DNA of 64,000 nucleotides from Candidatus Altimarinota bacterium. GTDB taxonomy: Bacteria; Patescibacteriota; Gracilibacteria; JBDHUY01. Location of the stretch: NCBI GenBank assembly GCA_039809385.1, contig JBDHUY010000002.1, forward strand, positions 32,001-96,000. Direction: 5' to 3'. Numbering within the stretch: position 1 is the stretch's first letter; each line of letters starts with the position of its first letter. Below are positions 3,989 to 61,342 of this stretch, piece by piece. Both the position numbers and the translations under genes were made by a program. The notes beneath the pieces were generated by a model. The model was not told the DNA's origin. It was given only the letters and a program-made list of their open reading frames with translations, and did not search any database.

Positions 3989-4441
3989 AGCTTAAAAAAA
4001 AGCGTATAACTAAACGATTATAAACTCTTTGAATGAGAAAGCAAAAAGAAGACAGCTTACTAGCAGCTGACAGGGAAAAACCTAACAAATTGAATGAGGA
4101 TATCGGGTAATGTTTTCTACCGGGTAACGTTGGGTTTGTATCTGGAAAATGGATAAAATTATCCTGTAGCAGCGTATTCTATAGATCTGCTTGTCTGCTC
4201 ATCTAAAACTCTGTACAATGAAATCAGGAAAAGCGCTACGATTCTTGCAATCACAAGAACATTCGTTCCAGTCGGAACGAAGCGCCGGGAAAAGAAAGCT
4301 TGCCTATTGTAAGCAATTAGACTTCCCCGGAAGAACAACCTCCCGTGACGAAAAAGGGCATGAAGCGGTCCGACGAAATGTCGGACAATCAAGGTGGTAC
4401 CTTCCGCCGGATGGCGGAACCTTGAGCACAAAATATTTTTT

Positions 4442-4711
4442 ATGCTCTTTTTTGTGAAGAATAAAGTCTTTGAGATTGTTGGCTGGTGCGGATTCATAAC
4501 CGCATTGTCGGGGTTGTATTTTTTAGAATCTGACTATTGGGACGCTGTCAGTCTGGATTTTGAATATACTCTCTTGTTTCTGGGTAGCTTTGCGATGTCT
4601 ATTCCGACATTCAGACGCAAAGCATATCCCGCTGGATTATTTATGGCGGTTCTTGGGATTTATTTTCTATGGCGTGTATATATTCTATTTCTTGAGAGAG
4701 ATTTTGTGTAG
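4442..4711 (+). CDS. Small membrane protein (about 3 TM), hypothetical
   Basis: Hydrophobic segments; ATG at 4442 preferred over the GTG at 4394; stop 5 nt before acylphosphatase start. Confidence 0.6.
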   Translation: MLFFVKNKVFEIVGWCGFITALSGLYFLESDYWDAVSLDFEYTLLFLGSFAMSIPTFRRKAYPAGLFMAVLGIYFLWRVYILFLERDFV

Positions 4712-4716
4712 ATATT

Positions 4717-5004
4717 ATGAAAAACTCTTTATCTCAACTGCGTCTTTTCTTCTCGGGCTATGTGCAGGGAGTGGGTTTCCGTTCCTTCATTGCCAAGACG
4801 GTACGAAACCATCCGAATGTCTGCGGATTTACCCGGAACCTCGATGACGGCCGAGTTGAAACTGTGTTGGAAGGAGAGAAAGAGATATTGAATAAAATAT
4901 TTGAACAAATAGAAAAAGGCTGTCCCGGCTCTACCGTGGAAAACATCAAAACACTATGGGGGAAGAAGGAGCAACGGGAATTCTTTCAGTTTACAGTGTA
5001 CTGA
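4717..5004 (+). CDS. acyP: Acylphosphatase
   Basis: GYVQGVGFR and GFTRNLDDGRVE motifs. Confidence 0.93.
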   Translation: MKNSLSQLRLFFSGYVQGVGFRSFIAKTVRNHPNVCGFTRNLDDGRVETVLEGEKEILNKIFEQIEKGCPGSTVENIKTLWGKKEQREFFQFTVY

Positions 5005-5011
5005 AGGGCAA

Positions 5012-5124
5012 TTGTATCTAGTATTAAGTATCAGGTATCTTGCAATTGATTTTTCTCTGGTTTCTTGTATTTCTACCCGCTGCCCATTCATTTCTTTATA
5101 GACTTTAGGAACTTTATGGACTTT
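5012..5124. repeat. Intergenic tandem arrays: period-7 GTATCTA/GTATTAA/GTATCAG (5012-5040) and period-10 ACTTTA(T/G)(A/G)GA (5094-5124)
   Basis: ttgtatctagtattaagtatcaggtatct; ctttatagactttaggaactttatggacttt. Confidence 0.75.
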
Positions 5125-58434: not shown

Positions 58435-58487
58435 CCCACGAAAAATTTTTACGTAAATATCCGATCCACGTACCTAAATATTTTTTT

Positions 58488-59696
58488 ATGAAGATCAACC
58501 TGGACGCTTTGAAGGAACAATTTCAACCGACACCTCCTGCCGGCGGTAATCCTGCCTCCGTTACGTCAGGATCTCAGTCGCAGGGAAGCGGAAACGATCC
58601 TGTCGCGAATTCATCCGCAGGGGCAAAAGCTACTATTGGCAGTGTTCCGGCTGGCAACGACAAACCTGAGATAGCGCCTTCCGCGGCTTCGTCAAGTACA
58701 CCCCTACCTTCACCTGTTTCTAACAATACCCCTGCGCTTAAGGAAGAAGAAGACACCCCGCCCAAGGTAGTGCTAAAAAGTACTGCATCCGAAAGTAACT
58801 CTGCTACTGAAAAAAATAGCAGCCCCGAGGCGACGCCGATCAAGATGATTTCTCTCAATAGCAAAAACACACCAGCCAAAGCTACCGGGGTAAAGCTTTT
58901 GTCGGTCGAACAAATGAAACAACAGAAAAAAGAACAGGAAGAACGGAAAAAAAATGTCCAAGTCGCGCCGGTCGACAAAAAAACGACCCTGGAAGTTGTT
59001 ATGGAGGAAGAACCGCTTCTGTTCGGGAACCTGAGCTCCACATCTCATCAGAAATGGCACAAAGAGAAGGAAAAATTCCGTAACTATCAAAGCAAGAAAA
59101 GAAAGCAAGCTGTCAAAATGGTAACGCCCGCCATAGGACTCTTTGCTTTGGCGTTAATTCTTTGGCCCGTTGGCAATAATTTTATCGCTTCTCTGTCGGG
59201 TACCACTTCTCAACAAAACACAAACGGAGTACCCATCAATGGAAATTCTTATCAAGTCACTCAAACCAACGATAACGCGCTACATGCCTCGGCCAATCAG
59301 AATAGCACCAATACGAATGAAAATCACTCGCTCAACAAAAATGCCAACACGCTTGCGCAGACCAATAGAAATAATAATCCGGTGACACCACAAAAATTCG
59401 TGACGAGTGTACAGAATGTTGCTCCTCAAATTTCGACTCAGAATGTGGAGGATCTGGAAAAGGCTTTTTCCAATCAAAGGACATTGACCGTTTTTGAAGC
59501 GGTGAAAGCCAGTATGGAGACTTTCAACATTCCCAGTCTGATTCCGCGGAATAAATTCAGTCCAAAGGATCGTTATGTTGTAAAATTTTCTCTCAAAAAC
59601 GGTATCGTCGCTCAGGAAGAAGATCTGTATAAAATTCTGGACGATGATACGCTTCACGATATCGAAGCCACGATGGTGCGGTATGTGACGAAATAA
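58488..59696 (+). CDS. Bitopic membrane protein with long low-complexity N-terminus
   Basis: P/S/T-rich disordered region, basic patch, single TM (AIGLFALALILWPVG), N/Q-rich linker. Confidence 0.8.
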   Translation: MKINLDALKEQFQPTPPAGGNPASVTSGSQSQGSGNDPVANSSAGAKATIGSVPAGNDKPEIAPSAASSSTPLPSPVSNNTPALKEEEDTPPKVVLKSTASESNSATEKNSSPEATPIKMISLNSKNTPAKATGVKLLSVEQMKQQKKEQEERKKNVQVAPVDKKTTLEVVMEEEPLLFGNLSSTSHQKWHKEKEKFRNYQSKKRKQAVKMVTPAIGLFALALILWPVGNNFIASLSGTTSQQNTNGVPINGNSYQVTQTNDNALHASANQNSTNTNENHSLNKNANTLAQTNRNNNPVTPQKFVTSVQNVAPQISTQNVEDLEKAFSNQRTLTVFEAVKASMETFNIPSLIPRNKFSPKDRYVVKFSLKNGIVAQEEDLYKILDDDTLHDIEATMVRYVTK

Positions 59697-59862
59697 AGAC
59701 GGGAGAACGGAGAGGTGAGTTCTCAAAGGCTTGCAGTTAACAACAAACAGATCCAAAAAGCCTCCTTGGGTTTTACTACAAAAACAAGAATCAATAAGAA
59801 TTATACCTTTAAAAAGCACTCTACTCTCACTCTGAACTTTGCATTTTTAACTTTTCATTCGT

Positions 59863-61221
59863 ATGCCCGATCCTATTGTTCTGACCCCAGTGGTTCCAAA
59901 AGAAGAAATAGCGTTTTCCGAAGCAAATTCTGTTGTCGCCGAGGCATCGTCAAACGAATCGCCCGAAGAATCGTTGGTAGAAGAATCCGTAACGGACGAT
60001 GCGCCACAAAACGACTCTCAGGCAGAGAATTCGTCGCCGCAAACTCAAGAAAATACTTCTAACGATTCCTCGTCCGTGCAAGAACAGGAACCGGCAGACA
60101 AGACAGCAGTGATCGAAACTCACATGGAGAATATCGTCACAAGCGAGGGTACGAAAGATTACGGAAAAATTTTGCGACGATTGCTGCAGGTGATGATCGA
60201 CAACTCGGTTTCGGATATGTTCGTGACCGTTGGAGTCCATCCGATTATCCGCGTCTATGGTGATCTGGTAGCATTGAGCGAAGGCTTGGATATTCTAACA
60301 CCCGACGATACTGAGGGCATCGTCCACGAGCTGTTGGCTACCGAGGAACGACGCGAAAAGTTTAAAATCCTGAAAGAACTGGACTTCTCGTTTGCCGTAG
60401 GAGACGAACGTTTCCGTGTGAACGTATTCCGTCAAAAAGGCTATGCTTCGGCCGCGGTTCGCTATTTGCCGGCCAAGATGTATTCGATCGATTCGCTCGG
60501 TCTTCCCGAGATTTTTCGCGAAGTAACTACGCGCAGCAGCGGAGTCATTCTCGTCGCTGGACCGACCGGTTCGGGTAAATCGACGACACTTTCGGCTATG
60601 ATCGACGAGATTAACAGCAATTATAAAAAACACATTATTACCATCGAAGACCCGATCGAATATGTTCACAAGCATAAGAAATGTATCATCGAACAACGCG
60701 AAGTGGGGGAGGATACCGAGAGTTTTTCCAAAGCTCTGCGCTCTGCGTTACGCGAAAATCCGGACGTCGTGCTGGTAGGGGAAATGCGTGATCTGGAAAG
60801 TATTCGCAACACCCTTACCCTGGCCGAAACCGGACATCTGGTCTTTGCCACTATCCATTCGCGGTCGTCGGCACAGTGCATTACCAAAATCGTCGACAGT
60901 TTTCCAGCGGAACAGCAGAACCAAGTGCGTCTGCAACTGGCGGAAGCCGTTGTAGCTATCTTTAACCAGCGTCTGCTCAGAAATGTGGGCGGGAACGGCT
61001 ATGTTCTGGTAACCGAGGTAATGATCGCCAATAACGCCATCCGCAATCTGATCCGCGAAAATAAAATATTCCAGGTAAACAGCAGCATCCAGATGGGACA
61101 AGCTGACGGAATGCATTTATTGGAAGACGATATTGTTCGCGTCATCCGGGAAGGACGGGTTACCAAAGAAGAAGGCGTGAAACACGCGAATGATCCTACG
61201 GCCATCCTACGCGCAGTTTAA
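59863..61221 (+). CDS. pilT: Type IV pilus retraction ATPase with acidic N-terminal extension
   Basis: ELDFSF, RFRVNVF, GPTGSGKSTT, IEDPIEY, LRENPDVVLVGEMRD, AETGHLV, AIRNLIRE. Confidence 0.96.
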   Translation: MPDPIVLTPVVPKEEIAFSEANSVVAEASSNESPEESLVEESVTDDAPQNDSQAENSSPQTQENTSNDSSSVQEQEPADKTAVIETHMENIVTSEGTKDYGKILRRLLQVMIDNSVSDMFVTVGVHPIIRVYGDLVALSEGLDILTPDDTEGIVHELLATEERREKFKILKELDFSFAVGDERFRVNVFRQKGYASAAVRYLPAKMYSIDSLGLPEIFREVTTRSSGVILVAGPTGSGKSTTLSAMIDEINSNYKKHIITIEDPIEYVHKHKKCIIEQREVGEDTESFSKALRSALRENPDVVLVGEMRDLESIRNTLTLAETGHLVFATIHSRSSAQCITKIVDSFPAEQQNQVRLQLAEAVVAIFNQRLLRNVGGNGYVLVTEVMIANNAIRNLIRENKIFQVNSSIQMGQADGMHLLEDDIVRVIREGRVTKEEGVKHANDPTAILRAV

Positions 61222-61342
61222 ACATATACTTTTTACATCGTTACACGCTTTCCAGTCTTTACGAGTCAATGGCGTAAACTCAAAGTTCAAATGTCAAAAT
61301 AAACTCAAAAGCTTATACTGAAAGAAAAGAAAGCATCAACGT

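Follow-up and report, generated by a model that had tools for sequence, protein, structure and literature searches.

Short repeats scattered through bacterial genomes are known in several forms. The tandem heptamers of Nostoc make up several families that are mostly intergenic, lie near start codons or promoters, and have been proposed to play a global regulatory role (bioRxiv 10.1101/2022.06.06.494920; PMC4692102). Heptamers of the GGGAATC type in Xanthomonas and Nostoc are described as intergenic, biased toward a fixed number of units, preferential in their distance and strand relative to open reading frames (ORFs), and conserved in position (PMC4692102). Rickettsia palindromic elements (RPEs) are palindromes that sit in frame in unrelated housekeeping genes and each encode a conserved peptide (PMC10969869). 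The repeats described here lie in a 64,000-nucleotide stretch of bacterial DNA (the window, G000:C2:32001-96000, where G000 is the genome under study). Those placed by a first-pass annotation of the window in families A–F are phased 7-nt units (heptads), together with one 9-nt variant, in short arrays of mostly three to six units. Its family G comprises two small hairpins, G1 and G2, found also at the ends of DUF559 genes. With moderate confidence, they are taken to be two mechanistically different classes of repeat: heptad modules at gene borders (class 1) and the hairpin termini of DUF559 units (class 2).

The heptads resemble the cyanobacterial short tandemly repeated repetitive (STRR) sequences in being dispersed, in falling into several families, and in lying mostly in intergenic DNA near gene starts. 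The STRR precedent invoked by the first-pass annotation extends to this form only. The host belongs to the candidate phyla radiation (CPR), and its units join four fixed to three variable bases, have unlike neighbors, form ordered strand-polar cassettes, and include an ATAC core that recurs across the phylum; three classical STRR units have no tandem dimer or trimer in the genome. Quadruplex formation is proposed for the G-rich heptamers of the GGGAATC type, whereas the start-proximal strand is G-poor here and the ATAC arrays cannot form such structures. The tandem repeats of Borgs add disordered segments where they lie in ORFs, and are described as fast-evolving, recently formed direct repeats (PMC9879509). 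In contrast, the 7-nt units of this genome read all three frames in turn, and their arrays are imperfect.

For the hairpins, RPEs proved an apt precedent. Copies of G2 encode a shared SPLERG peptide in IleS, ClpC, LepA, and an AddA-like protein, always in sense orientation and in one frame (4/4), in inserts absent from orthologs. The likeness is one of behavior, the host being clearly not Rickettsia. While RPEs measure ~150 bp, G1 is ~35 nt and G2 ~60 nt long, and both are physically linked to a DUF559 gene as its termini. RPEs are not known to have an assigned enzyme; the DUF559–hairpin link offers a candidate enzyme for this kind of behavior. In repetitive extragenic palindromic (REP/REPIN) systems with their REP-associated tyrosine transposase (RAYT), hairpins are likewise scattered in intergenic DNA and flank a small nuclease gene, but the palindrome is a different one and RAYT is a Y1/HUH enzyme whereas DUF559 is a PD-(D/E)XK protein. 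Like free-standing, Vsr-like homing genes, two of the DUF559 genes are wedged between suf genes; unlike homing endonuclease genes, they have no intron or intein context and come with hairpin termini and solo ends, their nuclease activity being predicted. Small dispersed repeats of Nostoc, described in Genome Research, are reportedly 21–27-nt hairpin repeats inside tandem heptamers.

Dispersed heptamers near gene starts (Nostoc, Xanthomonas), in-frame palindromes (Rickettsia), and REP/RAYT systems are therefore already known. What is new is the CPR host, heptads of four plus three bases with unlike neighbors and ordered polarity, the phylum-wide ATAC core, and a DUF559–hairpin unit with a fixed frame. 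A literature search that left out supplements found no paper on heptad arrays in CPR bacteria or on DUF559 units with hairpin ends.

Heptad arrays at gene borders

The repeats of the window are far above chance. Against 100 dinucleotide shuffles, three successive ATACNNN units matched 12 times (shuffle mean 0.01), three CAGCNNN units 10 times (mean 0.00), and the hairpin pattern CCCCY-N6-RGGGG six times (mean 0.11). Tandem Repeats Finder (TRF) gave 15 rows at period 7 and 3 at period 14 in the window. Genome-wide it gave 272 rows at period 7, compared with 38, 47, and 46 in three shuffles, and 97 at period 14, compared with 4, 6, and 10. The first-pass annotation had named a shuffle comparison as the check on its claim of nonrandom repeats, and the claim withstands it. 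An unbiased scan of all 256 tetramers at fixed spacing, requiring at least three repeats, yielded 1320 matches at period 7 but 412 at period 6, 360 at period 9, 182 at period 10, 136 at period 8, and 64 at period 5. This peak identifies the heptad unit as four fixed plus three variable bases, the commonest cores being CAAA (103), ATAC (62), GGAG (53), and CAGC (42). A second detector found 497 arrays across the genome. All 34 sites named in the annotation were inspected and nearly all are as described. Two motif labels had to be replaced, since the array at 29321 is of a GAATCAA type rather than AATTATG and that at 42932 of a TAG-N-A-NN type; the sites at 4051, 40326, and 59700 are weak, with two to three units.

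The arrays are concentrated between genes, as had been claimed. By crude ORF calls, 182 of 318 TRF arrays fall in the ~13.5% of the genome that is intergenic, and 400 of the 497 arrays of the second detector lie outside ORFs. When measured in gene-sense orientation over 1458 genes, their placement is polar. ATAC arrays end a median of 12 nt before the start codon (28 of 34 within 30 nt) and CTCC arrays a median of 7 nt before it (17 of 24 within 30 nt). The distance is 25 nt for GCTG, 33 nt for the CTTT 9-mer, and 76 nt for TTTG, while the opposite orientations (GTAT, CAGC, CAAA, GGAG) stand 131–187 nt from the start. A typical cassette runs from a CAGC array through an AAT-N-AT-N or CAAAGT-N array, a TGYCCC motif, an ATAC array, and YCCCC to the ATG, as exemplified at 20183–20306 and 40293–40396. 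Twenty of 29 ATAC-led genes were tested and 17 of the 20 could be named; they include RecA, DnaX, MutY, ribonucleotide reductase, GreA, Obg, and GrpE, along with L17, MiaA, RsmE, pyruvate kinase, and MscL. Arrays also lie within 5–19 nt of 11 of the 47 tRNA genes, with TTTG or CTCC on the 5' side of three, GTAT or CAAAGTC-type units on the 3' side of seven, and CAGC on the 3' side of an eighth. The presence of arrays at tRNA genes indicates that they mark the borders of transcription units and not only translation starts. Class 1 consists of ordered, strand-polar cassettes at such borders, with G-poor arrays (ATAC, CTCC, the 9-nt CTTT, and TTTG) just upstream of the start on the gene strand and their complements on the far side or at 3' ends.

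Across the genome, stretches rich in C/T and poor in G (TCCCC, CTCC) come before start codons, for example at 20291–20305 and 40386–40395. Upstream of 999 crudely called starts, GGAG occurs 21 times, CTCC 98 times, and TCCC 124 times. Pairing of the C-rich leaders with 16S rRNA was considered and rejected as impossible, the 3' end of the genome's 16S being the canonical CCUCC. From sequence, we infer that the class 1 arrays are selected cis-elements, part of a 5' leader or core promoter, in a host that hardly uses Shine–Dalgarno sites. A factor whose binding sites are repeated or oligomeric probably recognizes them.

A neutral origin, with the heptads as products of replication slippage tolerated in intergenic DNA, would be the simplest explanation of tandem units. 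Heptameric simple sequence repeats are over-represented in many bacteria, and polymerase slippage has been offered as the cause (PMC4692102). Within this genome, there are long perfect arrays of the CAAAGTC type, neighboring spacers of CAAA arrays are identical in 18.6% of cases compared with 4.8% of random pairs, and some CAGC arrays also have identical neighbors. The ATAC and GGAG arrays behave in the opposite way. Their neighboring spacers are identical in only 4.8% (ATAC) and 0.7% (GGAG) of cases, compared with 6.9% and 6.0% of random pairs, and because neighbors are less alike than random pairs these arrays are not slippage products. Array length is also capped, at three to six units for ATAC (31 of 62 arrays have five), and the strong strand polarity and fixed distance to the start disfavor slippage for ATAC and CTCC, as does the retention of the core in a genome of 61% GC and across the phylum. 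Neutral slippage is accordingly rated as very improbable. The narrow length, the unlike neighbors of ATAC and GGAG, and the phylum-wide core together point to constraint on the arrays themselves.

Long, near-perfect heptad runs occur at G000:C11:17351-17476, C10:50521-50583, and C8:31061-31155. They are CAAAGTC-type runs of 9–18 units plus a 17-unit CAGCRAT array, slippage-like and unlike the ATAC arrays.

The ATAC module is not confined to this genome. Four successive units were found in 14 of the 151 genomes sampled from the class and in 73 of the 401 sampled from the phylum (~18%), while the reversed pattern, used as a control, gave 0–3 matches in nearly all genomes and 12 at most. Many unrelated families have tens of matches, often as divergent pairs 30–60 nt apart, and in six other sampled genomes the arrays are mostly four to five units long. 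In G050, the 61% GC genome, which belongs to another family, there are 93 ATAC matches and a period-7 excess (225 against 40 at period 8 in 400 kb). The layout is that of G000, from array to pyrimidine stretch to ATG, and G050 also has CAGC arrays with variable spacers. Homologous genes do not appear to share the module: none of five ATAC-led G050 genes with a G000 homolog (0/5) has an ATAC-led one, against a background of 6/118. Taken with the phylum-wide core, this indicates that the type of module is conserved and its locations turn over, so that the arrays would pass between genes with no gene-by-gene inheritance.

These comparisons also bear on the suspicion that the repeats come from misassembly or from cyanobacterial contamination of the bin. 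The assembly (1.87 Mb, 46% GC, estimated 95% complete) is in 26 contigs with an estimated 2% contamination, and heptads of the STRR kind are classically cyanobacterial. An artifact nevertheless seems close to impossible. Across the repeat sites, contigs obtained independently in two studies show no difference from the window, genes flanked by arrays have Patescibacteria as best relatives, dozens of further genomes in the phylum have these arrays too, and the three classical STRR units have no tandem copies. The metagenome runs that contain the window are DNA runs from activated sludge and wastewater, and the search that listed them gave no RNA run. In a scan limited by peptide patterns, the named relatives that best match IleS are Patescibacteria/Peregrinibacteria metagenome-assembled genomes (36–55% identity). 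The 30 phylogenetic relatives of G000 have genomes of 0.7–1.9 Mb, several with many in-frame TGA codons. We infer that the host is a member of a Gracilibacteria/Peregrinibacteria-like CPR class and not a cyanobacterium.

Hairpin elements and DUF559 genes

G2 consists of an invariant first hairpin, a second stem, and a conserved tail, and pairing in the second stem is kept by compensatory changes at four pairs in seven copies. By pattern, the genome has eight or nine copies of G2 and ~17 of G1. The four G2 copies in ORFs are read as (K/A)SPLERG...; when we read the sequence ourselves, we found stops in both remaining sense frames and none in the three antisense frames. At the gathering score, Rfam had no match across the window, and on four loci with G2 copies it matched only an AsrC fragment, below threshold at 30 bits versus 111.

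Exactly three DUF559 genes (D1, D2, and D3) are present in the genome, and all are bracketed by G2 or G1 hairpins. They score 116, 112, and 103 bits against PF04480 (cutoff 20.6), and the protein matches Protein Data Bank entry 3hrl, an "endonuclease-like protein," with E = 2e-20. In a survey of PD-(D/E)XK proteins, DUF559 falls into one group with Vsr and with a homing endonuclease from a group I intron (PMC3424549). D1 and D2 (126 aa) lie inside the suf operon in the order Rrf2–D1–SufC–D2–SufBD, each with a G2 upstream and an inverted G2 that starts just past the stop codon. For D3, a G1 lies ~130 nt upstream, and the stop codon is immediately followed by an inverted G1-like hairpin. The short copies therefore share their termini with a coding unit, G2 with both ends of D1 and D2 and G1 with the ends of D3. 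Solo G1 and G2 copies are single ends and not pairs of terminal inverted repeats. In other genomes of the class, flanking hairpins with C/T arms were found at 12 of 20 DUF559 loci, on both sides at 7 of 20; the 20 loci hold 37 hairpins in 22.4 kb, compared with 0.21 per kb in a sample of G050 and 0.03 per kb in G000. We conclude that G1 and G2 are probably the termini and solo derivatives of DUF559 units, which are candidate nucleases. Class 2 would then comprise the terminal repeats of small, Vsr-like PD-(D/E)XK endonuclease genes, with solo copies scattered in the manner of miniature inverted-repeat transposable elements or as solo ends, and the G elements may still be mobile.

The first-pass annotation saw no candidate mobilizer. 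This is true of the window, but the rest of the genome holds three DUF559 units, one RAYT gene, and several small GIY-YIG genes. A search for small genes consistently flanked by the motifs, which that annotation had proposed, led to the DUF559 genes within their G hairpins and to no gene that tracks the heptads. As writers of heptads, four candidates were rejected. DUF559 occurs in 63 of the 151 class genomes and RAYT in 76, compared with 14 for ATAC arrays, with no link in either case, and RAYT has REPs of its own. No reverse transcriptase (RVT_1) match exists in the 95% complete genome. GIY-YIG gives 11 matches, the small ones lying at tRNA genes or at another repeat and not at arrays.

The RAYT gene itself (G000:C2:139916-140566, 101 bits versus a cutoff of 80) lies outside the window and is flanked by REPIN-like doublets, GGTTCCA...TGGAACC. 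There are 21 such palindromes at ~10 loci, 18 of them intergenic and none in the window, and their sequence differs from families A–G. Small GIY-YIG genes adjoin tRNA genes at G000:C25:17894-18097, C20:24194-25425, C4:122788-122991, and C11:16887-17095, and the opposite flank of each holds a second copy of the tRNA 3' half, an arrangement suggestive of nuclease-gene units aimed at tRNA genes. A different hairpin repeat flanks two more (C8:94290, C12:34554).

In-frame inserts in proteins

The ORFs of the window that carry repeats are all intact, as the first-pass annotation had stated: IleS (1338 aa), an RlmD-like protein (460 aa), a ClpC-like protein (1026 aa), and a giant protein of 2844 aa. 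Its further claim, that repeats reside in frame in essential proteins, holds for IleS and ClpC and, beyond the window, for eight further proteins. Cassettes of repeats lie within a P-type ATPase, an AddA-like helicase-nuclease, LepA (between the RGITIK and DTPGH motifs), PcrA/UvrD, a phosphoketolase, and a Mur ligase, and they form the C-terminal tails of LigA and MgsA.

Compared with 12 orthologs, IleS has three lineage-specific segments, and each is on a repeat site (Table 1). At the second, G001, the closest relative and a member of the same family, lacks the 22 heptad-encoded amino acids and has conserved flanks (NIDGW----QVSAL...PQ). The array at 5207 is upstream of the probable IleS start. 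The C-terminal end of the protein is a DUF5915 domain. In ClpC, a composite insert at 30012–30389 (aa 682–807, ~126 aa), which separates the D2 ATPase core from D2-small, and a C-terminal tail of 73 aa (29355–29573) stand out against 13 orthologs, and the insert is lineage-specific. The ortholog comparison that the annotation had called for therefore supports new peptide loops in both proteins. The RlmD hairpin falls within a loop that is variable throughout the 13 orthologs, and it brings no clear gain in length. An AlphaFold model of LepA, built on 15 sequences, has a mean predicted local distance difference test score (pLDDT) of 70. Residues 72–144, between two strands of the G domain, fall below 50 and have no secondary structure, although the low pLDDT may partly reflect empty alignment columns. 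The LepA cassette is, in this model, a disordered loop. Both classes of repeat would sometimes land in coding DNA or be read into at gene ends, and only copies with an open frame would survive, to be translated as disordered surface loops or tails.

A His_Phos_1 domain (window 6782–7285) is nested in the catalytic domain of IleS. Relatives also match this stretch (for example, query residues 527–695), and the nesting seems ancestral in part of the class. Nuclease domains are found inside synthetases of other genomes. A DUF559 domain is in frame inside LeuS of G131 (G131:C38, frame 2383–5460; aa 273–377 of 1026); after it come two C/G hairpins, whose translations are SPLEKGG and SPLLKGG. A Y1/RAYT domain is in frame inside IleS of G016, which is from another family of the class (G016:C1:197801-203200, frame 651–4430, minus strand; aa 369–493 of 1260), and several other RAYT matches lie in frames of ~1240–1800 aa. 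DUF559 domains of G050 and G091 share an open frame with downstream lamin-tail-domain proteins (1021 and 1046 aa), which may be true fusions or upstream read-through.

The composite inserts are an argument that a single copying machinery writes both heptads and hairpins into tolerant sites, with order and polarity arising from later selection. All four coding G2 copies (IleS, ClpC, LepA, and the AddA-like protein) sit in composite inserts that also hold heptads, a link that the division into two classes leaves unexplained. The order of modules in these inserts is that of the intergenic cassettes, and the arrays turn over between lineages. G elements are also about twofold nearer to arrays than random intergenic sites are (within 60 nt for 5 of 17 G1 and 2 of 9 G2 copies versus ~15%), only a modest enrichment for nesting of G elements in arrays. 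Against one machinery stand the failure of DUF559 and RAYT to track the arrays, the absence of a reverse transcriptase match in the 95% complete genome, the full DUF559 units of the suf operon, which have no heptad flanks, and the constant cores, narrow length, and phylum-wide conservation that indicate constraint on the arrays. One machinery for both is regarded as unlikely. The single active copying mechanism of the first-pass annotation is not supported; families A–F behave as constrained, polar border modules, and family G as a separate set of DUF559 termini.

Among the other features listed in Table 1, the giant protein has NHL repeats and little else that is recognizable. The ORF at 55177–58434 (1085 aa) is an unusual fusion of a tetratricopeptide (TPR) match, a SpoIIE-type PP2C phosphatase, and a type II secretion system (T2SS) protein F domain.

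Table 1. Repeat features and repeat-bearing genes of the window (window coordinates)
Position	Strand	Feature	Context
5014..5038	-	ATAC-N3 array, 4 units	no adjoining start codon
5102..5124	+	period-9 CTTTA-type array	upstream of ileS
5186..9202	+	ileS (DUF5915-type), 1338-aa frame	nested His_Phos_1 (aa 533-700); three repeat-derived inserts
5207..5229	+	period-9 CTTTA-type leader array	ends ~20 nt before probable ileS start ATG 5249
7395..7432	+	G1 hairpin (CTCCCCCTGATAAGGGGGAG...), in frame in IleS	lineage-specific 7403-7432 (aa 740-749)
7921..7988	+	CAGC-N3 arrays, in frame in IleS	insert 7931-7984 (aa 916-933)
8675..8704	+	CAGC-type heptads	open the third IleS insert
8717..8775	+	G2 element (probable solo DUF559-type terminus), read KSPLERGGPEGRGVSLEGTN	within insert 8699-8836 (aa 1172-1217)
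13453..13480	-	G1 hairpin, antisense, in frame	RlmD-like methyltransferase ORF 12816-14198
18638..18674	-	period-9 CTTTA-type leader array	directly 5' of minus-strand gene 18260-18634
18728..18745	+	ATAC-N3 array, 3 units	
19483..19507	+	AAT-N-AT-N heptad array	
19631..19649	+	GCTG-N3 array (CAGC on minus strand)	20 nt before ATG 19669, SpoU methylase
20183..20290	+	full ordered cassette: CAGC 20183-20207, AATTATG 20215-20253, ATAC 20268-20290	followed by C-rich stretch and ATG 20306 (ABC transporter)
24061..24100	-	CTCC-N3 leader array (plus strand GGAG)	5' of minus-strand M23/SLH gene 22890-24026
24101..24130	+	CAGC-N3 array	
24176..24232	+	G1 hairpin, long form, extra loop sequence	intergenic
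26331..26377	+	degenerate G1-like hairpin	intergenic
29321..29345	+	GAATCAA-type heptads	just 3' of clpC
29352..32432	-	clpC-like AAA+ chaperone, 1026 aa	
30151..30209	-	ATAC array 30181-30209, then 3' CTCC-type heptads 30151-30180	inside ClpC insert
30262..30336	-	G2 hairpin element	in ClpC, sense
40293..40385	+	ordered cassette: CAGC 40293-40310, AATTATA stretch, TTGTCCCC, 5-unit ATAC array 40352-40385	followed by CCCCTC and ATG 40396
42930..42965	+	TAG-N-A-NN heptad array	spans stop codon of Wzy_C-family gene 41060-42946
47833..47861	+	CAGC-N3 array, in frame (QQTADSTQLT)	2844-aa NHL-repeat protein 45154-53688
55186..55220	+	ATAC array, 5 units	7 nt before ATG 55228, SpoIIE/T2SSF fusion gene
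59837..59862	+	TTTG-type leader heptads	directly 5' of ATG 59863
61279..61312	+	CAAA-N3 heptad array	intergenic

Two classes of repeat and what they may mean

Several observations weigh against this two-class account. On the side of the arrays, there are the microsatellite-like CAAA arrays and the CAGC arrays with identical neighbors already described, and strong proximity to starts is confined to G000. Arrays lie near an ATG-opened frame in 3 of 9 cases in G331, 0 of 6 in G442, 2 of 12 in G346, 1 of 4 in G449, 2 of 3 in G511, and 11 of 35 in G050, compared with 8–19% of random positions. The absence of shared ATAC leaders between G050 and G000 concerns five genes only. A purely translational role is ruled out by the arrays at tRNA genes, and a scan of the cassettes for the sigma-70 consensus gave no excess (3 versus 2.9 expected and 0 versus 0.5). 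All position counts use crude longest-ORF gene calls. On the side of the hairpins, 8 of the 20 DUF559 loci in other genomes have no such hairpin, the DUF559 genes in G000 number only three, and there is no clear target-site duplication at D1 or D2. Contigs of X1, X2, X5, and X6 (four runs from two studies, depth 2–6) show no clear presence or absence of arrays or inserts between strains. In one X6 contig of depth 2, 34 letters replace 7384–7450, and this contig may be from another organism; contig joints at 8704/7956 and 8775/8675 correspond to the paralogous copy in LepA.

A bolder form of the two-class account joins a "heptad code" to in-frame nuclease genes. It is offered tentatively, as a possibility more doubtful than not. 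The four to five ATAC-N3 units, with the sister cores CTCC, TTTG, and CAGC, would constitute a new, phylum-wide class of promoter or leader that is portable between genes and takes the place of initiation driven by Shine–Dalgarno sites, recognized by a factor whose sites for binding nucleic acid are repeated or oligomeric. Alongside this, hairpin-ended genes for DUF559 and RAYT would have adapted to life in frame inside IleS, LeuS, ClpC, and LepA without splicing.

Almost nothing is known about the initiation of transcription and translation in CPR bacteria (Patescibacteria). A heptad array at gene borders in ~18% of the sampled genomes of the phylum provides a concrete cis-element and a handle for expression tools. 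The DUF559–hairpin link suggests a route by which CPR proteins gain their many lineage-specific insertions, and the whole nuclease domains that lie in frame within IleS and LeuS point to a high tolerance of these synthetases. If the in-frame nuclease genes are what they appear to be, they would let selfish genes persist without inteins and would be a source of new protein loops.

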